Assembly (NCBI GenBank): GCA_963837245.1
Contig: CAWIMR010000029.1
Span: 347,537 to 411,536, forward strand
Direction: 5' to 3'
Source of the DNA: an uncultured Acidobacteriaceae bacterium
Lineage (GTDB): Bacteria; Acidobacteriota; Terriglobia; Terriglobales; Acidobacteriaceae
DNA length: 64,000 nucleotides
A program made the translations under genes and the position numbers. A model generated the notes under the pieces. The model worked only from the letters and a program-made list of their open reading frames with translations. It searched no databases and had not been told where the DNA came from. Shown here piece by piece: positions 30,220-63,187 of the stretch (position 1 is its first letter; each line of letters opens with the position of its first letter).

Positions 30220-30417
30220 CGACTCGCTTTCTTGCGTTTGTCATCCCCAGCGAGGGCTTCAGTCCGAGCGGAGCTCCAGATTTTCTCGGCTGAAGGGGAT
30301 CCCTTCGCGATTCTGATTCCACAGCGAGTTACGTTGGTTTATAGTGGGCTGCTCGTGATATCCGACTTGCGGGCGAACAGCCTGGCGCTGCCGTGCGAAG
30401 CCGGGCAACATTGAAAG

Positions 30418-30873
30418 GTGACCATGGCTGACTGGGTCCACACGTTCAAAGGTGCGGTGCTGGCTTCGGAGTACGACTTTGCCAGCCACATGAATTCGCG
30501 GATGTATGTTTCGCGCTTCGATCAGGCAACCTGGTTTCTGCTGCACGCGATTGGCGTTACGCCAGCTTCGATGAAGCAGAAGAACCTGCGCGTGGCCATG
30601 GTCCGCCAGAACTACCAGTTTCTGGAGGAGCTGCGCGGCGGCGAGCTGGTGGAAATCAAGAGCGGCTTCCTCACCGTGGGCGAAAAATATTTCCGCTTCC
30701 TGCATCAGATGTACAACGACGAGACCGGCAATATGGTTGCCACCTGTGATTGCGTTGCCGTCCAAGCCAGCCTCGAAACCGGTAAGAGCGTTCCCTTGAC
30801 CGATGCCCTCCAGGAGAAGGCCAAGCAACACCTGGTGTCGGCGAATGTGCCGCTGGATTCCGAGGTCGGATAA
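30418..30873 (+). CDS. hotdog-fold acyl-CoA thioesterase family protein
   Basis: 151 aa; 4HBT-like composition/length. Weak call. Confidence 0.55.
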   Translation: MTMADWVHTFKGAVLASEYDFASHMNSRMYVSRFDQATWFLLHAIGVTPASMKQKNLRVAMVRQNYQFLEELRGGELVEIKSGFLTVGEKYFRFLHQMYNDETGNMVATCDCVAVQASLETGKSVPLTDALQEKAKQHLVSANVPLDSEVG

Positions 30874-31049
30874 CCTGCCATAGCTCAGCCTTAAACTGGC
30901 ACACATCGGTGTCGAATCGAGATCAAACATGTGAGGCGTGGTTGGCGTGGACAGTCGTCAATAGGCGATGGTAAGCTTGCCCTCCGATTGCTCGCGTGCG
31001 AGGGCATTTCTCAAGAGCGAGACCCTCCGGCCGTGCGAGGATGACAACG

Positions 31050-32140
31050 ATGGCATCCGATCCGATCACCGCGCCCGTAGCGTTGAGCGCTACCAGGGGC
31101 ATCGCCCAACCGGTAACCGCAGCGCTGGCTCGCGCCGCCATCTTTCTCGTGGTGACTTTAAAACCCGGCCCCGACAATCGCACGGCCCTTCGATCGTTTT
31201 GTGGGGACCTGGCCGCGTTGTTGCGCGCCGTGGGATTTCGCGACCTTGAGGCGGGGCTCTCCTGTGTCCTGGGGTTTGGGTCGGAAGCCTGGGATCGGCT
31301 GTTCGGGCTGCTGCGGCCGGCAGAGCTACATCCATTCCGTGAGATTCGTGCCGGGGCCCGGCATGCCGTCTCTACACCGGGCGACTTGCTGTTTCACATC
31401 CGCGCGAAGCGCATGGACTTGTGCTTCGAGTTGGCGACGCAAATCATGGCACGCATCGGCGATGCGGTTTCGCCGGTCGACGAGGTGCATGGCTTCCGTT
31501 ACTTCGACGACCGCGACCTCCTCGGTTTTGTCGACGGAACGGAGAATCCGACTGGCCAGGCTGCGATCGACGCCGTGGTTGTCGGCGAGGAGGATGCCAT
31601 GTTCGCTGGCGGCAGCTACGTCATCGTGCAAAAGTATCTTCACGACCTTGCGGGATGGAACGGGCTGACCACCGAGGCGCAGGAACGAATCATTGGCCGC
31701 ACGAAACTATCTGACATCGAATTGGACGACTCCATCAAGCCAACCTCAGCCCACAACGCACTCACGACCATCGTCGAAGATGGGAAAGAGATCAAGATCC
31801 TGCGCGATAACATGCCCTTCGGGTCGGTTGCGCAAGGTGAGTTTGGCACCTATTTCATTGGCTATAGCCGGTCGCCCAGCACGATTGAGCAAATGCTGGA
31901 GAACATGTTTATTGGTCGCCCGCCGGGCAACTACGATCGGCTGCTCGATTTCAGTCGCGCCGTCACCGGAAACTTGTTTTTTGCGCCCTCCGCGACATTT
32001 CTGGAAGACGTAGCCGAGGATCAGCCTGCGGTTGTAGGGGTTTCCGCCCAAGCCAGCGGTCGAAGCTTCTTTGCCCGCTGCGCGAGAACGACGGTTCGCT
32101 GGGTATCGGTTCCCTTAAAGGAGACATTCCCCATGAATAA
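31050..32140 (+). CDS. Dyp-type (dye-decolorizing) haem peroxidase, encapsulin cargo with C-terminal targeting peptide; the linker region carries two apparent 1-nt indels
   Basis: Frame 0: FRYFDDRDLLGFVDGTENP (DyP GXXDG motif) ... NLFFAPSATFLEDV. The -1 frame ends ...RENDGSLGIGSLKGDIPHE* (canonical encapsulin cargo-loading peptide) with its TAA at 32138-32140. A Pro/Ala-rich linker GFPPKPAVEASLPAARE is readable in the third frame between them. GAGGA Shine-Dalgarno before ATG 31050. Confidence 0.85.
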
Positions 32141-32951
32141 TCTGCATCGAGAGCTTGCCCCCATTTCCGATGCCGCTTGGGCCCAGATCGAAGAGGAAAC
32201 ATCGCGCACGCTCAAGCGCCACCTCGCAGGACGGCACGTAGTGGACCTGCATGGGCCAGCGGGCGCAAGCCTCTCCGCCGTCGGTACGGGACATCTGCTG
32301 ACGATCCCGGCGCCGGGCGACGGCGTCGTCGCCGGACAGCGCGAACTAAAGGCGCTGGTCGAGATCCGTGTTCCATTCGAACTGGAGCGCCAGGCCATCG
32401 ATGACGTCGAGCGCGGCGCGAACGACTCAGACTGGCAGCCGGCGAAGGACGCCGCGCGCAAGCTCGCTTATGCCGAGGATGGCGCCATCTTCGATGGCTA
32501 TCCCGCCGCTGGAATCGTGGGCATTCGGCAAGGGACCAGCAATCCGGCGATGACCCTCCCCGGCGATGTGCGAGAGTACCCGGTAGCAATTGCCCAAGGC
32601 CTGAGCCAATTGCGGCTTGTCGGCGTCAATGGCCCCTATGCCGTGCTCCTCGATGCCAACGTTTACACTGCGCTGGCCGAGACCAGCGATCAAGGATATC
32701 CGGTACTGGAACATGTCAAACGGCTCGTCGACAACAAAATCATCTGGGCGCCCGCCATCCAGGGTGCTTTTGTGGTCACCACCCGTGGCGGCGATTTTGA
32801 CCTGCACATCGGCCAGGATGTCTCCATTGGCTATTTGAATCACACCGATGCCGCTGTCAGCCTCTACTTGCAGGAGACATTCACTTTCCTGATGCTCACG
32901 GCTGAGGCAGCCATCGCGCTGGCTCCGCCGGTGAAGTCGCAGAAGAACTGA
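32133..32951 (+). CDS. family 1 encapsulin nanocompartment shell protein (HK97-fold, linocin M18-like)
   Basis: MNNLHRELAPISDAAWAQIEEETSRTLKRHLAGRHVVDL...SNPAMTLPGD...GPYAVLLDANVYTALAETSDQGYPVLEHVKRLV..IIWAPAIQGAFVVTTRGGDFDLHIGQDVSIGY...YLQETFTF matches the M. tuberculosis Cfp29/Rv0798c-type encapsulin almost motif-for-motif. AAGGAG Shine-Dalgarno 8 nt upstream; the start overlaps the DyP stop (ATGAATAA). Confidence 0.9.
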   Translation: MNNLHRELAPISDAAWAQIEEETSRTLKRHLAGRHVVDLHGPAGASLSAVGTGHLLTIPAPGDGVVAGQRELKALVEIRVPFELERQAIDDVERGANDSDWQPAKDAARKLAYAEDGAIFDGYPAAGIVGIRQGTSNPAMTLPGDVREYPVAIAQGLSQLRLVGVNGPYAVLLDANVYTALAETSDQGYPVLEHVKRLVDNKIIWAPAIQGAFVVTTRGGDFDLHIGQDVSIGYLNHTDAAVSLYLQETFTFLMLTAEAAIALAPPVKSQKN

Positions 32952-33098
32952 CGCGTTTGCCGACTGCAAGTGTCCGGAAATCGGCCGAGTCTGTTGTCAA
33001 GTTTAAAGGGTTATCCGGGTCCGGGAAAAGCCTGCCAGCTCGAATCTCGACGAGCTGATGCGAAAACTCTCGCTGGCGCAATGATCCGGCAAAATCAG

Positions 33099-33125
33099 AA
33101 AAGGGCACTCGCGCGAGTGCCCTTT
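33099..33125. terminator. bidirectional intrinsic terminator between encapsulin and the convergent TonB-dependent-receptor-like gene
   Basis: AAAA-GGGCACTCGCGCGAGTGCCC-TTT, a perfect 20-nt palindrome flanked by A4/T3. Confidence 0.5.
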
Positions 33126-33149
33126 GACTGCACCTCCGATTCTCTTCGA

Positions 33150-36100
33150 TCAGAAGTTAACGCGGAACCCGAACTCCATGGCTCGGGGCGTATTGCCTTG
33201 GCCCGGCGAGGTACCCCAGGAACTCGGGCTGCTGGTGTCGAGGTAATCATTCCCCTGGGTGCCCCCGAAACCAGGATCGAAGAACACCACGTGGTTAAAG
33301 AGATTGAGAAACACGGCCTGCGCTTCAAAACTGACGCGTTCTGTAATCTTGAAGTTTTTCTTCAGGCTGAAATCCACGTTCCAGTACGGTAGCCCACGCA
33401 GGACGCCGATTCCCCCGTCGCGGGTGTCATAGCCAAGAATGGGCTGCCGAATTGAGTTGTACACGGCTGCTGGATCGGCCCAGATATTGACAGGCAGTGA
33501 GCCGCCCGTGCCGACACCATTCGCTGAGGTAACGTTGTAATGTACGCCACTGCTGGGGATCGGTCCTATTGGGATTGCATTTTCGGAGACTCCATTGCCG
33601 AAGAAGTTCACCGAATCGCCTTCGCCGAAGGCCTGCCCGCCACCGTTGACCGTGCCCAGAGTCATGGGCAAGCCACTGCCAGCGACGAAAATCGGCGCGA
33701 AAGTCCAGCCTCCCAGCAGGCGCCCCTTCCACCCCGCCTGTCCCTTGAAGAAGGCAGGCTGGTACACCATGAACAGGTTGTAAACCAGCGTGCGGTCAAA
33801 CCCCTGCAAGCCGTATTGCGTGTGCAGGTTAAACGGGTCGATCGTCGTATCCTCGCTAGTGGCCTGAACCAACGCGCCCGTACCCAGCGCCTTCGACCAG
33901 GTGAAGTTCGACTGCATGGTCAGGCCTTTCCAGTCTGACATCTTGACGGAGATGAAACCGGCGTTGTAATTGCCGTAGCCCAGGCTGGCGTTGACTCCAA
34001 CACCGCTGCTAAGCTGCCCATTGGCGCCGAACTGCCCACCCTGAATGGGAGTATTCAGCATGCTACGCGGGAAGTTGAACCCGCCGTTGTCCAGATCGCT
34101 CCACAGGCTCCACACGTTCTGGATGTCGAGGTTGCCGCTGCCATTAGCGGCGCCTTCTTTGAACGCCACTGCTGCGGTGCAGCTCGAGAACCCATTGCAA
34201 TACCCGGTGCCCGCCAAGGCCGTCTCAAAAAACGGCTGCGGCGTGACTGTCTGGTAACGAATTAGCGTTAGCAGCGCAATTGCTGCCGCGAAGCCCGTTG
34301 ATGCCGCCACAATATTGGAGCACCAGGTTGGCGTAGGCCTTGTCGAAGCGCTGGCCGCCCAGCGTCATCATGTAGGGCACGGAGTTGATGTTAATGGGCT
34401 GGTACTCGTGGGTGATGTGGCGCCCGATATAGCCGAGTTCCATGCTCACCTGGCGCGACAACTGGTGCTGAAACGAGAGGCTCCACGAGTCCACCACGTT
34501 GGGGCGGAAATTCGGGTCCAAAGCCTCACCCGCGCCAGCGGCGATGTCGTTAATACCAGGAAAGTCCGGTTGCGGAAGGGTCGGACTGGCCGGCGGCAAG
34601 GGCGCGTTTAAGCCATTGATGCCGACGCGGAAAGCCGTGGCTGGGTTCGAACCGGAAGAGCTGCCTGCGCAGGTACCATTGGCCAACGCCCCGATGCACT
34701 GTACCGGTTGGATCAGTCCAGTGCCCAACAGCGGCACCAGGACCAGGTCCACCCCATTCAACCGGCCGTAGATTCGACCGTAACCGCCCCGTATGACTGT
34801 GTTGCCGTCGCCCCACGGATCCCATGCGGCCGCAATTCGCGGACTCCATTCTCCGTAATAGGGATTGTAGGGGTATTTGGGGTGTCCCGCGACGTTATCA
34901 ATCAAGGAGAAACCAACCGTCGGGTTATAGACCTGTCCCTGTAAGGCTGCGCTCTCCCGCGAATTCAAGTAGTTCGTGACGCTGATGGGCTTGTCATTCG
35001 AGTCCACCAATATGACTTGCTTACCATTCGCCTCCACCGGCGGCATTTCCAGCGTCCATCCCAGACCGTAGGTCAGAGTGAACCTTGGATTGATGCGCCA
35101 CGTGTCGCTGAAGTACACGTTGTAATAAGGAATGGTGCTCTGGTCGTAGGCCGGCGTTAGCGGAGGATTCAGATTCAGCGCTTTCCCCGACCGGGTGTAG
35201 GCGATCTGCGCGATGGAGACGATACCCAACGTGGCGGCGTAGTCCCGACCCCAGTTCGCTGTGGGAACAAGCGGATTCCCGTTTGCATCGGATGGGACAT
35301 ATCCCGACAAGTTGATTCCGGCGCCGCTGGTCGTACCGAGCTGGTACACGGGGTAGTAGTTAATGCCACCGCCGTTATCGGTACGCTGATGATAGTTCCA
35401 GTTGTGCTGGTACTGACCGCCAAATTGCAGGGTATGCCTGCCTTTGAGCATGGTCACGTCATCCTTAAGCATCCAGTCGTGCCCATCCCAGAAGCGAGTT
35501 CGTGTCCCCTGCGTGTTCACGTTATAGGGGGCGAGGACGTTGGTCCCATTTTCACCCCACGGTTCCAGCGCGCCTCCCAAACCAGGGATCTGCACCGGGT
35601 CTCCTTCAGTGTTCCAGGACCAATAGTTGCGCAGATAGCTATAGTGTAAGTCGTTCGTCGTATTGGTACTGATGTTGGTAGTCAGCCCTGCCACCAGATA
35701 CCACGGCACCTGCGGGTTGTTAGAGACGGCGGCTGGGACACCCAGCTTGTCGCCTGGGAAAAAGCCCCCAATATCAATCTGCCGAGTGGTCACCGGAGTG
35801 AGATGGTAATACCGGTAACTCGACATGAAGTGCCACTTGTCGCCAAAATCGTGGTCCAGGCGAGCGACGCCGAAATTGTCGTCCTGCGGGGTCGACATGT
35901 TGGCTTTGAAGCCTAGAATGTTCGTACCGTCGCAACGGCTGAGGCCGCAGGTGGATTCATTCGACATCGGCATATACTTATTCACATCTGCTGCACTACA
36001 GGGTTTATTCCAATACCCAGCGGATCCCAATCCTTCAGGTTGTAGTTGACTCCATTGAAGGTGAGGATGCCGTTACGCATGTTTTCCGATGGAACCGGCC

Positions 36101-37148
36101 TTTCTATGGTTTGCGAATACGGCCAGCGGAAGCCTTGATACATGCCATAAAAATAAGTTTTGCCGCCCAGCATCTTGGGGAGGATGGGTCCGCCAGCTCC
36201 TGCTCCAAACCGGCTGTAGTGCCAGTTCGGTAGTGGCGTACCGGTAAAGTTGTTGTCCCAAGTATTTGCCGAGAAGTTGTTATCCAGATAGTACTCAAAG
36301 ACCGTGCCGTGCCAGACGTTGGTGCCGCGCTTGGTCACGACCTGCACCTGCGCTCCCGACGAGCTGTTGAAATCGGCGCCTTGCAGGGCAGTGCTGACCT
36401 TGAATTCCTCGACGCTGTCAATCGGAGTCGGCATCACTCCAGTCGGGCCTGCAGCTCCGGTATAAGCCTGATTGGCAATGCCACCGGTGGGGTCGTGGGC
36501 GGCGTAGCTGGTGGTGTACACGCTCATACTGCCATCCATGTCGTTGGTGTTGTTGCCACCATCGAGCATGAAGGTACTCTGGTCCACCACGGTACCCGCC
36601 ACGCTGCCATCAGGGCTGACGCCGGGCTGCAATTCTACGAAGGTACTGACGTCGCGGTCCTGGCTGGGCAGGGATTGCAGCGCCAGTCCGGTGACGGTAT
36701 TGCCGATGGTAGCGTTCGTAGTCTGTAATTCCACCCCAGTGGCCGCCACCTCAATGGTCTGGGTTGCCGTGCCCACTTCCAGCGTGGCGTTAGCAGTGGT
36801 AGGCGTACCAATCTTTACCTGCTGGGCGCCAATCCTGAATTTCTTGAAACCTGACTTGGTCACCGTGATGTCGTAAGTGCTCGGCGGCACGTTGACAAAG
36901 GTATAGAAACCAGCACTGTTGCTGGTGGCTGTGCGCGTCTCTTGCGTGGCCGTGTCGGTCAGGGTGATCGTCGCATTCGGAACCACCGCGCCAGTCTTGT
37001 CGCTAACCGTCCCGGCAACAGTGCCGCCGGATGCGACTTGTGTCCAAGCCGGTACTGCGCCGACCCAAAGCAGGATAGCGGCCATAAGGCCAAAGGTTGC
37101 AAGGAACGAACGTGACGGGAAAGGGTCCCGAAGCTCAGGTCGTGTCAT
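33150..37148 (-). pseudogene. TonB-dependent-receptor-like outer-membrane protein with N-terminal carboxypeptidase-regulatory-like domain (paralog 2), split into three ORFs by two frameshifts
   Basis: ORFs 35982-37205, 34225-36030 and 33150-34310 are collinear pieces homologous to the intact 39435-43031 paralog. They carry a signal peptide, a CarbopepD_reg-like N-terminus (TVAGTVSD..GAVVPNATITLT) and the C-terminal ...PRAMEFGFRVNF* beta-barrel terminus. GGAGGG Shine-Dalgarno before ATG 37148. Confidence 0.7.
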
Positions 37149-37559
37149 TTCTCCCTCCAGAGGTTGACTTGCGTCTAACGTCTGACTTCGCGGATTGGCA
37201 AACAACTATCTAGGCCGCTTGAAAAGAGAGATCCTAACGACAGAAGGCCGAACCGAATTGGGTCTTGAAATGCACCAGCACCTGCCTCTTCGCCCAGAGA
37301 AAACGACAGAGATCTCGGCACCAGCTAAGCGCTCCGAGAACCACCCAAATCCCAAATCTTAAGATCGGAGCGCGGCAAGAATTGGGCACAATGACAGCAT
37401 TTGAGTATCCAAATGTGAAAGCCGGTTAACGTTATGAAAATATTGTAGATTTCCAGAACTGGATTCCAATAAGGTTACGAAATCCTGAATATTTCACGGA
37501 AGCGACATCCAATTTCCCATAGATGACGCCGCGCGGTTGAGGCGGATCGGGCAATCGGC

Positions 37560-39434: not shown

Positions 39435-42400
39435 TTAGAACGCAATGCGCATGCCGAACTCCATGGCGCGTGGCGCGCCCAGGTTGAAAACACCGGTACC
39501 GACCCCTACGCGGTTGGTAATGCGATCGGCGGCAGTGGTGCCATTGATCGTGCCCGCGCTGCCCGTCAAGGCACCGGTCAGGGCGTTCGGAGGCAGGTCA
39601 AAGTTGGCGAAATTGAAGAGGTTGTAGAAACCCACACCGGGCTGGAGTTGAATGACATGGCTCTTCAACTCAACGTTGTAGGTCCAGTTTAACTTCAGGT
39701 CAAAGTCTCGAAGCGAACCCAGGTTCACCTGGCCGTTGGGAGCGGGTTGCAGGGTGCAGTTCGGACTGTTGATGCCCATTCCCTGAACACATGGCGCCAC
39801 TCCACCAAGTTGCTGGAGCTGGCTGACGGTGAACAGGCCATTGTTGACCAGCGTCATTCCGGCTGGCGTTGGCTGGTTACCTTGGGTGGCATTGTAGCTC
39901 GCCAATAACGTATTAAGCGTACTGGCATGGACGGACCTTCCGTAGGCTCCATTGAGCGTTCCCGGCAGCGGATCCCCCGTTGTACCGTCACCCGTGAAAT
40001 CGGTCTGGAATATCTGTCCCGCTCCAGATCCAGGTACGATGATCGGCAGCGGCAACGACGAATTGAAGTGGCCGATGAAGGAGACCTGGAAGTGCCACGG
40101 CAGGCTACCGACAACGCCGAAGGAAAACTGCTGGGGGCGATCGAGCAGCGAGGGCCCAAAATACCGGTTCGGGTTTTCATTGTCTAGCGCAGGAATCACG
40201 AAGTCCTGATCACTGTTGGCGACCGCACCCGGCGCGGTAGCACTGCCACCACCCGAGTTCTTGAAGGAAGAGTAGGCGTAGGAGATCTGTGCGTTCAAGC
40301 CGGGGAGCCACTTAGCCACGTTGTGTTTTTGATAGGTGAGTTTCATCTCCACCGCGTTGTATTTCGAGATTCCTGAGGGAACCATGAATGTCATCGCGGG
40401 CGCTGCCGGATTTAGGCCTCCAAAGGCGCAGCCTCCCGGTGGGCAAGATCCCGTTCCACCCAGATCACCTTGGGAATCCAAGCCATTCTGGGCAAAACTG
40501 CTGATGGTCGCGCCGTTCGCAATGGCACAATTGATCGCGGCCGCACTGGAGCCTCCCGCGCAACCGAACGAGGCAGTGGTGTTTGCGATCGCCGTCTGAG
40601 CGTTCGCCTTATTGAAGTACTTCACGTCGCCGGTGTGGTTCAAATCCACGCCAAGCAGCAGGCCCGTGGTGACGTTGCGGACATAGTCCACGCTGCCCAC
40701 GACGCCAGGCGCAAATTCATGCTGTATGCCAACATTGATCTGGGTGGAACGTGGTGTCTTATAGTTGGGAGCAAACAGGCCGATCGGAAAGTTTATGCCC
40801 CCGTTGAGGTAACCCGAAACGATGTAGTTGGGGTTGGGATTATTAAGGTTGAACGGGTTGGCCGCCTGGTATTGCTGCTGCAAGGTTGCAATCGCCGAAC
40901 CCACTTGGCCCAGGGAAAGCTGACTGCCATCAGGAGCGAGACCGCAATCCTCAGGCGTGACGGTTGGCTGACCGGAGCCCGGAAGCTGAGTTATGGTTCC
41001 GAAAACGCAGGGTGTCGGGGTCTGCAGGAACGCGCCATTCTGAAGCCGCAATGGGCGATCAAAAAGGACATTGTTAAAGATCACGTTCTCGTAATACAGG
41101 CCAATGCCCGCACGAACCACGTTTTTGCCGGTTTTCCATGGATCCCAAGCGATTCCCAGGTTGGGGCCGAAATTCAGGTTCGGATTGGGAATTGCATTGC
41201 CCAGATTAGGAAAGTCCGAAACCACATTGTTCAGCGCGGGTATGCCCGGCAGATCGCTGTCCGTGCGGCCGGTGTCGCGTACATAGCGCAGGCCGAGATT
41301 CACGGTGAAATTAGAAAACATCTTCCAAGTGTCAGCGATATACGCTCCCAAGCGATTATCCGGTCCCAGTCCGCCAGCCGGGAAGCCAAACGCCGACTGG
41401 GTTGTGGAGAAACCCTGGCCGTTGCCAAGGATCACGATATCAACAGGATAATTAAGAGGGTTCCCAGCGCCGCCGGGATAGGGCCCGGCAGCCGCGAAAG
41501 CTTGGTCTCCTGAATAGTTGGTAACTACTTGCGGCGCCAGCGAAAAGAACTTCGCAAAGCCACCGCCTTGTATGTGGTTATAGTCCACGCCATAGCGCAG
41601 GATGTGCTTACCAACGGTCTTTGAGCCGTCGTACTTGATTTGGTGGTCACTCTGGGGCGTGCTTTGCGGCGCCAGAAGGTTGGGCCCAGTAGAGGGGCCG
41701 TTATTGACGTCGATGTTGAGATAAAGGCCGTTGCCGGGGAAGTTCGCCAGCGGCAGCGTGCTGCCGATGACCGCGTCCGCGATTTCGTTCTGGAACTTCA
41801 GATAGCTGAAGCGAATGCTGTGGGTCCAGGCGCCGGTGACGAAATCGGCGCCACCTACGTAATTGCGGACGTAGTTTTTCGACTGATACACCTGAAGGCT
41901 GTCGGAAAAGAAGGTGCCCTCCGCCTTGATTTGCGAGTAGCTGTAGCGGAAGAACAGCTTGATGTTGTGGGGTGCGACGAAATCCACGCGCCCCAGAGCA
42001 TTGGGGTTTGAGAAGGGCGAGTTGAAGCCCCCTGAGAAACTATCAAAGGGTGGGGCATACTGGACGGGCCCGAACAGGCTCTGGTTGGTCCCGTCGCCTT
42101 CCGCGAAGTAGAACAACTTGTCCTTGATAAAGGCTCCGCCCACGCTGCCACCGTATTGGTTGCGGTGATAATTGGGATCGTCGAAACCCGCAGGCTTTGG
42201 CAAGGACGCATCCACGCTGCTGGTGCGGTAATATTCGTAGCCCTCGCCGTGGATGGTGTTGGTACCTGACTTGGTGGACACGTTGACCACGCCTGACGAA
42301 CTCAGATCGTTGGATAAATCCATTGTGGATTGCGCGATCTGGAATTCCTGAATGGCGCTGGCCGAGATGTTGCCCGTGGTCGTGCCGACGGTTTCGTCGG

Positions 42401-43031
42401 AGATGTCCGTGCCATCCACCTGGATACGCGCGGTGCGGCCGAAACGGCCGCCAAACGAAATGGACTGGTAGCCAATCTTGGTTGGGTCGAAGTTGGTTCC
42501 ATCCTGAATCTGCACGCCCGGCTCAAGCTGCGCCAGATCGAGGAAATTACGGCCATTGACGGGTAAATTCTCAATCTGGGTCGCGGTCAGAACACCCTGC
42601 ACCGACGTCTGTTCGGTGTTTACGCCAACCGCCGCCGCCTCGACATTGACGGTCGTGGACTCCGAGCCCACTTGCAACTTGAAATTGACAGCGCTGTTGT
42701 TGCCGATTTGGACCAGCACACTGGTCTCGGAACGGGAAAACCCTTTTGCCTGCACGCTGACCGTGTAGGTGCCCGCCGTGATCGAGCCGGAGTTATAGGA
42801 CCCGCTCGAGTTGGTGGTCACGTTGGTCGTGACGCCGGTGTCGGTCCGGGTGATGGCCACCTTGGCCCCCGACACGGCAGCCCCGCTGGGATCGGTTACC
42901 GTGCCATTGATGTTCCCCGTGGATATGGTGGATTGGGCATTCAGGGTGGAGGGCAGCAACAGGAGCAGAGTTGCCAGCGCAGCAATTAGACAAAGGATCG
43001 CGCGCCGTTCGTGGGCGTTCAAACGCGTCAT
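39435..43031 (-). CDS. TonB-dependent-receptor-like outer-membrane protein with N-terminal carboxypeptidase-regulatory-like domain (paralog 1, intact, ~1198 aa)
   Basis: Signal peptide MTRLNAHERRAILCLIAALATLLLLLPSTLNA; INGTVTDPSGAAVSGAKVAITRTDTG..; C-terminus ..GAPRAMEFGMRIAF*; GAGAGGA Shine-Dalgarno. The ORF track start at 43109 is an upstream in-frame extension. Confidence 0.8.
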   Translation of the reverse strand: MTRLNAHERRAILCLIAALATLLLLLPSTLNAQSTISTGNINGTVTDPSGAAVSGAKVAITRTDTGVTTNVTTNSSGSYNSGSITAGTYTVSVQAKGFSRSETSVLVQIGNNSAVNFKLQVGSESTTVNVEAAAVGVNTEQTSVQGVLTATQIENLPVNGRNFLDLAQLEPGVQIQDGTNFDPTKIGYQSISFGGRFGRTARIQVDGTDISDETVGTTTGNISASAIQEFQIAQSTMDLSNDLSSSGVVNVSTKSGTNTIHGEGYEYYRTSSVDASLPKPAGFDDPNYHRNQYGGSVGGAFIKDKLFYFAEGDGTNQSLFGPVQYAPPFDSFSGGFNSPFSNPNALGRVDFVAPHNIKLFFRYSYSQIKAEGTFFSDSLQVYQSKNYVRNYVGGADFVTGAWTHSIRFSYLKFQNEIADAVIGSTLPLANFPGNGLYLNIDVNNGPSTGPNLLAPQSTPQSDHQIKYDGSKTVGKHILRYGVDYNHIQGGGFAKFFSLAPQVVTNYSGDQAFAAAGPYPGGAGNPLNYPVDIVILGNGQGFSTTQSAFGFPAGGLGPDNRLGAYIADTWKMFSNFTVNLGLRYVRDTGRTDSDLPGIPALNNVVSDFPNLGNAIPNPNLNFGPNLGIAWDPWKTGKNVVRAGIGLYYENVIFNNVLFDRPLRLQNGAFLQTPTPCVFGTITQLPGSGQPTVTPEDCGLAPDGSQLSLGQVGSAIATLQQQYQAANPFNLNNPNPNYIVSGYLNGGINFPIGLFAPNYKTPRSTQINVGIQHEFAPGVVGSVDYVRNVTTGLLLGVDLNHTGDVKYFNKANAQTAIANTTASFGCAGGSSAAAINCAIANGATISSFAQNGLDSQGDLGGTGSCPPGGCAFGGLNPAAPAMTFMVPSGISKYNAVEMKLTYQKHNVAKWLPGLNAQISYAYSSFKNSGGGSATAPGAVANSDQDFVIPALDNENPNRYFGPSLLDRPQQFSFGVVGSLPWHFQVSFIGHFNSSLPLPIIVPGSGAGQIFQTDFTGDGTTGDPLPGTLNGAYGRSVHASTLNTLLASYNATQGNQPTPAGMTLVNNGLFTVSQLQQLGGVAPCVQGMGINSPNCTLQPAPNGQVNLGSLRDFDLKLNWTYNVELKSHVIQLQPGVGFYNLFNFANFDLPPNALTGALTGSAGTINGTTAADRITNRVGVGTGVFNLGAPRAMEFGMRIAF

Positions 43032-43605
43032 ACGCTTTTCCTCTCTAGGGATGTCGTCAACCTGCCAGATCGCCCACCAGAAGACGTGCGTCTTCTTCCC
43101 GCCGGTCAACCTTGTGAATGTGCGCTGTCAACTTTGACAACGAATGCCGCAGCCCGATAGCTGCGGATCGCAACTGCCGGTTTCCAAATTCGGTGGTTAC
43201 AGTGACGAAAATAGAAGGTGGAGCATGTGCCGAGGAAAGACTGGTTCCACTGGCAAACCAGACGGAAGTGGCATACTGCCGGACTGTGTAGCGTAGCCAA
43301 GTAACTTGGCACAACCGACCCCACATCGGTGGCGCTTATTGCCGACTTGGGGTGCTTCTATGCAATTGGTTAGCCAAACCAGAGAGGAAGTAACTCTCTG
43401 GAAACACTAAAGCCGAGGGGCGGATTGCTGGATTAATGGTACGAAATTCAGAATGCTGAGATTTATGAAATCCTGTTTTTCATAGCCGAGGTGGATATCG
43501 ACAACGACAGCGGCAGCTGAACTCCTTGGACTTGGGGAACCGGCCTTCGGTCGGCAAGAGCTAAAGTAACCTGTTAAACATGCCAAGGAGGTTATAATAA
43601 CTTCG

Positions 43606-60744: not shown

Positions 60745-60750
60745 CCCATC

Positions 60751-63187
60751 ATGCCGCAATTCTGCGATGTGGCCGTGCCGGTCCCGCTCGACGCCACCTT
60801 CACCTACCGCCTTCCCGAGAACACGCCCGAGCCCTGCGTCGGCGGCCGCGTCATTGTGCCTTTCCGCGAGAAGCGGCTGAGCGGCATCGTCACCGAGCTG
60901 CACGATCGTGAACCCAAATTCCAGACCCGCCGCCTGAGCCAGGTACTGGACTCCACCCCCGCGCTAACAACCGAACTCATGCAACTGGGCCGCTGGATCG
61001 CCCAGTACTACATCGCCCCCATCGGCGAAGTCTTTCGCACCATGCTGCCGCTGTCCGCGGAGTTTCGGCGGGTCATCGGCTACCACATCACCGACAAAGG
61101 GATTGCTGCACTGCATGCTGCATCCACGGTCGGGTCTTCGTTGCGGTCGCAGAAAGAGCCCGAACACCAGATGCTGGAATATGCCGCATTAAACCGTCTT
61201 GCGGACGGCGAAGTCGTGCGCGAAGCCGCGCTGCGTTCGGCCTCTGGTGCAACAAAATCGGTGCTGCAGGCCATGCTGCGAAAGAAGTGGATTGCCCGCG
61301 ACGACCTCAGCGACGTACGCGATGCCAGCCGCACCGTGCAGATGGCGACGTTAAAGAACGCTGAAGGCAAGCTCAACGCCAACCAGCAGAAGATCGTGAA
61401 CTACCTGGGCAGCCAGGAAAACCGGCGCGCCCCGGTTGAAGCGGTTCGCCAACTGGACGTCCCGCGCACCACGCTGCAAACGCTGGTACGCCGCAGCATC
61501 GTCGAGCTGACCTACGAGCCGGCTACCTTCCACGTTTCCGGACTGAAGCCGCGCAAGCTGGAGTTCCTCTTCACGCCCGCGCAGAGACAAGCACTCGATA
61601 CGATCATCGGCGCCGTCGATGAGCGGAAGTTCCTGCCCATGCTGCTGCACGGCGTTACCGGCTCGGGCAAGACCGCCGTGTACCTGTCGGCGATGCAGGC
61701 GCTACTGGCCAAGGGCCGCTCGGCAATCCTTCTGGTTCCGGAGATCGGCCTCACCCCCGCCATGGCTGCTGATCTGCACCAGATCTTCGGCGATGAGGTT
61801 GCCATCCTCCATTCCGCGCTGAGCGATGACGAGCGTGCCGAGCAATGGAAGCGCATCCGCAATGGCGAGTCCCACATTGTGGTAGGCACACGCTCCGCCA
61901 TCTTCGCGCCCGTGCCCGATCTCGCGCTCATCGTGGTGGATGAGGAGCACGACCACTCCTACAAGCAGGAGGAAATGCCGCGCTACCACGCCCGCGATGT
62001 GGCCGTGATGCGCGCCAAAATGTGCAACGCCGCCGTTGTGCTCGGGTCGGCCACGCCGTCGCTGGAAACGTATTACAACGCGGTGCAGGGCAAGTATCGT
62101 CTGCTGGAGCTGCCGGAGCGCATCGAGAAGCGCCCGCTGCCCGAGGTCGAAATCCTCGACATGCGCGAGGAATTCCAGCGTACCCGCAAGGACGAACCGC
62201 TCTCCCGCAAGCTGGTTGCGGAAATCGGCGAGCGCCTGGCGCGCAACGAGCAGGTCATGGTGCTGCTGAACCGGCGCGGCTATTCCGCGTTCGTGCTCTG
62301 CCGCGAGTGCGGCGAGAGCGTGCAATGCAAGAACTGCGCCATCGCCATGACCTACCACAAGCGCGAGCACCGGCTCATGTGCCACTACTGCGGCTTCGCA
62401 GCGCCCCGCGCCCAAGACCTGCCCCCAGTGCGGCAGCGAGTACGTGCAGTATCTCGGCACCGGATCGGAAAAGCTGGAGCACATTCTGCACGGGCTGTTC
62501 CCCCAGGCGCGCATTGCCCGGCTCGACCGCGACACCGTCCACGGGCGCGACGACTTTGAGCGCATGTTGACCGCGCTGCACGCCGGCGAAATCGACCTGC
62601 TGGTAGGCACGCAGATGATCGCCAAGGGGCATGACGTGGCCAACGTCACGCTGGTTGGCGTGGTCGGCTCCGACGCCGCGCTCAGCTTTCCCGACTTCCG
62701 CGCCGCCGAGCGCACCTTCCAGTTGCTCACCCAGGTCGCGGGACGCGCCGGCCGCGGCGACACGCCCGGCAAAGTCGTGCTGCAAACATTTTTTCCCGAC
62801 CACTACGCCATCCAGTTCGCCGCCGCGCACGACTACCACGGCTTCTACGAGAAGGAAGTGCGCTTCCGCAGTTGGATGCACTACCCGCCATTCGACGCCG
62901 TAAGCAACGTGCTGGTGCGCAGCCATAAACTTGACGAAGCGCTGGCCTGGTCGGGCATCCTGGGCAAGTGGTTCCACGGCACGCAGCTCGACGGCGTGCG
63001 CGTGATGGGACCGGCGGCGGCGGCCATCGTGCGGCTCAAGACCGAATACCGCTACCACTTTCTGCTGAAGTCGCGCAGCCGCGAGCGCATGAATGCCGTG
63101 CTGCGCTCCATGCTCGAACATGCGGCGGAGCAAAAGATCCCGCGCAACAACGTGGTGGTGGATGTGGATGCCCTGTCGCTGATTTAG
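60751..63187 (+). CDS. priA: primosomal protein N' (replication restart helicase), with a +1 frameshift near 62400-62415
   Basis: GVTGSGKT, DEEH helicase motifs in ORF 60751-62559. The Cys-rich region CRECGESVQCKNCAIAMTYH..CHYCGF continues as ..KTCPQCGSEYVQYLGTGSEKLE.. in ORF 62444-63187 after a C-run. Confidence 0.85.

Follow-up and report, generated by a model that had tools for sequence, protein, structure and literature searches.

A DyP peroxidase and encapsulin shell operon in an uncultured Acidobacteriaceae bacterium, read as a single gene across two extra bases that are most likely consensus errors

The analyzed stretch of 64,000 nucleotides (nt) from an uncultured Acidobacteriaceae bacterium (GenBank assembly GCA_963837245.1, contig CAWIMR010000029.1, positions 347,537 to 411,536), hereafter the window, contains an open reading frame (ORF) of 651 amino acids (aa) at positions 30996-32951 of the forward strand. 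The original prediction had regarded this ORF as a hidden two-gene operon, in which a DyP-type heme peroxidase in the 5' half is directly followed by a family-1 encapsulin in the 3' half, and Pfam searches bore out both assignments. The ORF matches the domains Dyp_perox_N (PF04261, residues 38-168, E=3.8e-32), Dyp_perox_C (PF20628, residues 171-334, E=6.9e-59), and Linocin_M18 (PF04454, residues 380-630, E=3.9e-95, 318.3 bits vs. a cut-off of 24.3). Judged from its sequence, the two-gene identity of the locus is essentially certain; the content of the two genes, and the origin of the apparent fusion between them, are described below.

The downstream gene, located at 32133-32951 (+), encodes a shell protein of 272 aa, and its ATG start codon lies inside the last codons of the peroxidase gene, at the sequence ATGAATAA. 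The protein matches the equivalog model NF041155 (encap_f1) with 347.5 bits against a cut-off of 100, and its matches to the solved shells 9I8D, 9FN9, 7BOJ, 6I9G, 7P1T, and 8U50 have E-values from 1e-104 to 1e-112. Residues 1-264/265 align without gaps to 9I8D (63.6% identity) and 7BOJ (62.3%), with E-values of 1e-110 to 1e-112. A primary cargo with a C-terminal targeting peptide is encoded directly upstream, once that gene is read across two 1-nt insertions. According to these matches, the 272-aa protein is a family-1 (classical) encapsulin shell protein.

The upstream gene for the DyP-type heme peroxidase cargo occupies 31050-32140 (+) and comprises 1,091 nt as given. Deletion of one C from each of two CCC runs yields a repaired gene of 1,089 nt, which encodes 362 aa plus a stop from the ATG at 31050. 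The GTG at 30996, from which the 651-aa ORF is counted, falls within the 5' leader and is just the earliest start codon to follow a stop; since the upstream ATG found in relatives inside a AGGATGAC motif is out of frame, we take the ATG at 31050 as the real DyP start. The Shine-Dalgarno sequence GAGGA is found at 31037-31041 (+), and the repaired protein begins with MASDP, as do the 362-aa homologs, this being the commonest length among the closest DyP homologs (88-91% identical). The DyP matches the curated model TIGR01413 with 297.6 bits (cut-off 100.5), and residues 14-360 of the repaired protein align to 8U4Z, the encapsulin-associated DyP of Klebsiella (KpDyP), with E=2e-139. In this alignment, the proximal histidine H235 and the distal arginine R252 correspond to H225 and R242 of KpDyP, respectively, and the GxxDG motif (FVDGTENP) is identical in the two proteins. 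The indels aside, the gene is undamaged, having no in-frame stops and keeping all catalytic residues. The 362-aa product is, on the evidence of these matches, an encapsulated B-type DyP peroxidase with predicted heme binding and H2O2-dependent activity.

The peroxidase gene ends with the cargo-loading (targeting) peptide DGSLGIGSLKGDIPHE, which is translated from 32090-32137 (+) and followed by TAA at 32138-32140. The peptide belongs to the frame whose codons start at positions equal to 2 modulo 3, which reads RENDGSLGIGSLKGDIPHE up to the stop, and its counterpart in the alignment with the Klebsiella DyP is GSLNIGSLKKEV, with the C-terminal GSLGIGSLK placed against GSLNIGSLK. A six-frame scan of the window for a second targeting-peptide motif found none, the one in the DyP gene standing alone. 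The TAA overlaps the shell ATG at 32133-32135, and the Shine-Dalgarno sequence of the shell gene, AAGGAG at 32118-32123 (+), is located within the K-G-D codons of the targeting peptide. Thus, the C-terminal peptide in a shifted frame and the stop/start overlap are both as originally predicted; the AAGGAG is present as well, with a spacing to the ATG of 9 nt and not the 8 nt that had been given.

The same arrangement recurs in related genomes. A scan that used one genome per species returned at least 600 matching stretches, 559 of which were confirmed as relatives, and the layout was counted in the best 80 of these at least 559 loci. The strict targeting-peptide pattern is matched in 62 of the 80 loci, most of the others having one-residue variants. 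At the shell start, ATGxxTAA occurs in all 80 loci, and an AAGGAG-like Shine-Dalgarno sequence is present in 79, the distance to the ATG being 9 nt in 75 loci. Because the ribosome-binding site within the targeting-peptide codons and the overlap of start and stop are nearly invariant in relatives, translation of cargo and shell is probably coupled. Both at 32117-32140 in the window and in all 80 loci, AAAGGAG is encoded by K-G-D/E codons and ATGAATAA joins the two genes. The near-invariance at the nucleotide level may be explained by three constraints acting on one stretch, namely the peptide, the ribosome-binding site, and the overlap.

In the sequence as given, no uninterrupted frame leads from the DyP start to the targeting peptide, and two frame changes are needed to connect them. 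Three-frame translation of the junction gives FLEDVAEDQPAVVGVSA at the end of the frame-0 piece, PAVEASLP in frame 1, and RENDGSLG in frame 2, where the peptide is read; the frame-1 piece occupies the linker position of PAVEAPLP, PAAEASLA, and PAVQASMP in intact homologs. We placed the indels by DNA alignment with seven relatives and by global pairwise alignments. The first frameshift site is the CCC run at 32047-32049 (+), which has one extra base compared with relatives and leads from frame 0 to frame 1; a single-base gap was found there in the related loci L001, L002, and L034. The second site is the CCC run at 32074-32076 (+), which likewise has one extra base and leads from frame 1 to frame 2, the single-base gap falling at the run in L001 and a few bases downstream in L002. 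Both runs, 27 nt apart, are located in the DyP linker, and the two 1-nt insertions are the sole gaps relative to the closest relative L001 across the whole 1,091-nt gene (84.5% nucleotide identity). The original prediction had correctly noticed that the targeting peptide is out of frame; however, the single -1 shift by which it explained this is ruled out by the three-frame translation and by the alignments showing two +1 insertions. The two extra C bases would thus shift DyP reading into the shell frame, and the 651-aa fused ORF appears because the shell frame happens to be free of stops upstream of the shell ATG.

We consider it very probable that the locus is a two-gene DyP-encapsulin operon and that its fusion is caused by the two extra C bases, most likely consensus errors. 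Given the two-gene identity, we are a shade more confident that the extra bases are indels introduced in error into the consensus of a long-read assembly. The window contains at least three other frameshifts, all associated with homopolymers. The downstream gene at 33150-37205 (-), which encodes a TonB-receptor-like protein (CarboxypepD_reg and OMP_b-brl_4 domains), is split into three overlapping ORFs; on a single Pfam model for outer-membrane barrels, 838 positions long, they cover 1-88, 123-588, and 592-835. One of its breaks falls at a T6 run (~34225-34230); the other, near 35985, is presumably a GG read as G, judging by the two reading frames and by related proteins. An intact 1,224-aa paralog at 39435-43109 confirms one of these two frame changes. 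In addition, the priA gene at 60745-63187 (+) is split into two ORFs, one with the 3'BD, DEAD, and Zn-ribbon domains and the other with Helicase_C and PriA_C, and its frame changes between the Cys-rich region and Helicase_C, in a cluster of C runs around 62400-62430. The replication-restart helicase PriA is normally a single polypeptide; that such a housekeeping gene is broken speaks for consensus errors throughout the contig.

Comparison with the relatives points in the same direction. An intact single-frame DyP gene ending at the overlap is present in ~70 of the 80 related loci. Frameshifted DyP genes were found in 8 of the 53 loci from MFD metagenome-assembled genomes (MAGs), which are Nanopore-only assemblies with one round of Medaka polishing, and in 0 of the 27 other loci, a marginal difference (Fisher p=0.046) in which the sequencing technology is assigned from MAG names. 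Gene callers do turn such loci into fusions, as had been predicted: at least 35 fused DyP+Linocin ORFs, nearly all of them singletons, are among the best 120 database hits (P0001-P0032, P0044, P0073, and P0114, and also L081 and L082; Acidobacteriota MAGs, from protein collections). Among 13 fused ORFs inspected, 11 contain out-of-frame stretches, four of these 11 being broken at more than one place; only the other two, P0005 (L081) and P0024, are fused cleanly in frame with the targeting peptide preserved. On the contig of P0005, whose accession is styled like those of the MFD MAGs, the neighboring aldehyde dehydrogenase gene is in three fragments. Since the region upstream of the shell ATG often lacks stops in the shell frame, a single indel in the linker can produce a plausible-looking DyP-encapsulin fusion, and surveys that report natural fusions of this kind should check for linker frameshifts.

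Several points weigh against sequencing errors as the cause, in addition to the marginal p-value and name-based assignment just given. For a sequencing error, the homopolymer involved in a change from CC to CCC is very short, and two errors within 27 nt amount to a high local density. A copy of the junction was sought in metagenome contigs by two exact-pattern scans, the first of which allowed either C-run length, with 0 matches; as no second sequence of the strain was found, real mutations retain a share of the probability. Acidobacterial DyP encapsulins are, moreover, known from sequence, with their assembly, loading, and peroxidase activity being predicted properties.

If both insertions are real, the DyP gene would be a recent pseudogene, its product lacking the targeting peptide and running into the shell, and free shell protein made from the internal Shine-Dalgarno sequence and ATG would perhaps form empty or defective compartments. 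We regard this as unlikely, though the two extra bases are present in the sequence as given, the metagenome-contig scans found no independent sequence of the strain, and real inactivation does occur in the family, as indicated by the DyP gene of locus L053 with its insertion of ~1.3 kb. The gene shows no decay beyond the indels, its protein being up to 91% identical to the closest intact homologs; the frameshifts in priA and in the outer-membrane gene of the same window speak for a general problem of sequence quality, and in relatives, DyP genes with frameshifts come from Nanopore-only MAGs alone. A functional DyP-encapsulin fusion has even less in its favor, and we consider it very improbable. 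In this case, some shell subunits would carry the cargo covalently on their N-terminus, which faces the lumen; together with free subunits from the internal start, whose Shine-Dalgarno sequence and ATG are intact in the window, they would form mosaic shells loaded without a targeting peptide. N-terminal cargo fusions are known in family 1, with Flp in archaea and a cytochrome in anammox bacteria (PMC8346489), and according to one paper, fusion to the cargo occurs in some DyP encapsulins. However, out-of-frame reading destroys the targeting peptide and two separate indels are needed, while the DNA retains a perfect targeting peptide and stop/start overlap that nothing would maintain in a true fusion. 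The in-frame fusion is not conserved, ~70 of the 80 relatives having two separate genes, and fused ORFs are nearly all singletons scattered among intact relatives, most of them with garbled stretches. Moreover, 60 fused DyP copies per T=1 shell would far exceed the 6-18 copies reported for DyP encapsulins (PMC10960027). The clean in-frame database fusions P0005 and P0024, with their targeting peptides, count in favor of this possibility and, if it were true, would hint that evolution has repeatedly led from cargo targeted by a peptide to cargo that is fused.

Neither of the two frames is closed by a stop at the junction, and programmed ribosomal frameshifting could in principle yield, from one mRNA, both the DyP with its targeting peptide and the DyP-shell fusion. 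However, the targeting-peptide frame could be reached only by two separate +1 shifts, and neither site is conserved: in the relatives, the extra bases are missing and DyP is read in one frame throughout. We saw neither a slippery heptamer at the junction nor a conserved structure downstream, and Rfam reported nothing there. The comparison with relatives effectively refutes this mechanism, to which we assign hardly any probability, and we return to consensus errors in an otherwise intact two-gene operon as the preferred explanation.

The cassette proves to be widespread, contrary to the rarity suggested by the original prediction: it occurs in at least 559 stretches from genomes that each represent one species, and the curated models NF041155 and TIGR01413 name both of its proteins. 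The best 80 relatives are all Acidobacteriota MAGs with shells 78-89% identical to that of the window, and include members of the Acidobacteriaceae, Terriglobales, Sulfotelmatobacter, Acidoferrales, and Bryobacterales. At one of the related loci (L053:4407-5706), ~1.3 kb of additional DNA, which may be an insertion sequence, splits the DyP gene between reference residues 273 and 272. A census of 2021 counted 1,505 DyP encapsulin systems, the largest known encapsulin cargo class, of which only 24 were outside Actinobacteria and Proteobacteria (PMC8346489). We found no occurrences of Acidobacteria in those supplementary files of that census (PMC8346489) that were searched, and a search of one open-access library returned almost nothing on acidobacterial encapsulins. 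On the basis of the census counts and this sparse literature, the phylum is under-described for encapsulins, although the system itself is not new. The cassette is very common in soil Acidobacteriota. The consequences for biology are small, its distribution and the annotation hazard being two modest points.

DNA similarity between the cassette and its relatives is limited to 30941-32955, starting at ~30941-30968, about 100 nt upstream of the DyP ATG. Beyond 30941-32955, no conservation of the flanks was found at the DNA or protein level; the cassette is therefore a free-standing unit, to which the neighbors give no functional clue. Its GC content (0.609 vs. 0.592 for the window) is unremarkable. 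Near the upstream boundary, a promoter-like motif at 30948-30977 (+) consists of TGGACA (30948-30953), an 18-nt spacer, and TGgTAAGCT (30969-30977). In relatives, an alignment of 29 regions upstream of DyP has conserved columns with TGGAC(A/G), a spacer of 17-18 nt, and then TGGTAAGCT. The two blocks of the motif resemble a -35 and an extended -10 element, respectively, which would make it a putative promoter; a generic sigma-70 promoter scan made no call at 30948-30977.

Between this motif and the DyP Shine-Dalgarno sequence, the leader contains a hairpin or palindrome at 31000-31027 (+), GAGGG..TCTC-AAGAGC-GAGA.CCCTC. A hairpin was found at the same place in all 12 folded leaders (the window and 11 relatives), and in relatives the core UUUCG-AAGAG-CGAAA is common, while the outer stems vary in sequence yet still pair. 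The Z-scores of the leader hairpins range from -0.2 (window) to -4.3, and RNAalifold on 19 leaders returned no consensus structure, probably because of poor alignment. Together, the promoter-like motif and the hairpin could be an operator or an RNA element controlling the operon. Downstream of the cassette, a terminator scan identified a palindromic GC-rich hairpin at 33100-33125 with a perfect 11-bp stem, AAAGGGCACTCGCGCGAGTGCCCTTT, bordered by an A-tract and, at the opposite end, by a T-tract. The shell and outer-membrane genes converge on this hairpin, which probably acts as a terminator in both directions. The Rfam search of 30300-33300 returned nothing besides a sub-threshold match of the small RNA BjrC68 that overlaps this hairpin (23.7 bits vs. 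a gathering score of 39), which we took as chance.

We propose that a single transcript, probably starting from the motif near 30948-30977, would encode both DyP and the shell protein. The 362-aa DyP would carry a flexible Ala/Pro/Ser-rich linker ending in the targeting peptide DGSLGIGSLKGDIPHE. By analogy with the solved relatives, 60 subunits of the 272-aa HK97-fold shell protein would assemble into a T=1 cage of ~24 nm, which would capture one or two DyP hexamers via the targeting peptide. H2O2-dependent oxidation would then be confined in the cage, presumably as a defense against oxidative stress.

Among known systems, the fusion encapsulins with Flp or cytochrome cargo (Pyrococcus, Sulfolobus, and anammox bacteria; PMC8346489) bear a superficial likeness to the 651-aa ORF, as they have the cargo N-terminal to the shell in one ORF. 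These fusions are conserved within lineages and in frame (PMC8346489), whereas the fusion in the window arises from two indels, has a scrambled targeting peptide, and is absent in ~70 of the 80 relatives. Another B-type DyP whose C-terminus carries a targeting peptide is DypB from Rhodococcus jostii (3QNR/3QNS), which is paired with an encapsulin and for which a lignin-oxidizing role has been proposed. Its match to residues 9-357 of the repaired DyP has an E-value of 6e-115, and it is less similar to the repaired DyP than the Klebsiella and mycobacterial cargos.

The mycobacterial Cfp29/DyP encapsulins (7BOJ, 7P1T, 7PHM, 9FN9, and 6I9G) have shells that are 62-64% identical to the shell of the window and align without gaps from Met1 (MNNL[HY]RELAP), and the mycobacterial DyP cargo 7BOK matches the repaired DyP with E=1e-127. 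They form T=1 shells of 60 subunits. The window shell differs from them by a C-terminal extension of 7 residues (272 aa vs. 265 aa), and its system belongs to soil members of Acidobacteriota known from MAGs alone.

In the DyP encapsulin of Klebsiella pneumoniae (shell 8U50/8U51, cargo 8U4Z; PMC10960027), as in the window, the DyP gene is located directly upstream of the shell gene. Its DyP shares the proximal His, the distal Arg, the GxxDG motif, and the C-terminal GSLxIGSLK with the repaired DyP, and its shell matches residues 1-265 of the window shell with E=1.5e-104. In Klebsiella, 60 shell subunits make up a T=1 cage of 24 nm with one or two DyP hexamers inside, and loading is lost when the targeting peptide is removed (PMC10960027). 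The two systems differ in their hosts, Enterobacteria there and Acidobacteriota here, and in the two 1-nt insertions that interrupt the DyP gene of the window. The Klebsiella operon also includes formate dehydrogenase and rpoH genes and has transposase flanks (PMC10960027), none of which adjoin the cassette here. The operon in the window is thus of an ordinary, known type, fitting the DyP encapsulins in every tested respect.

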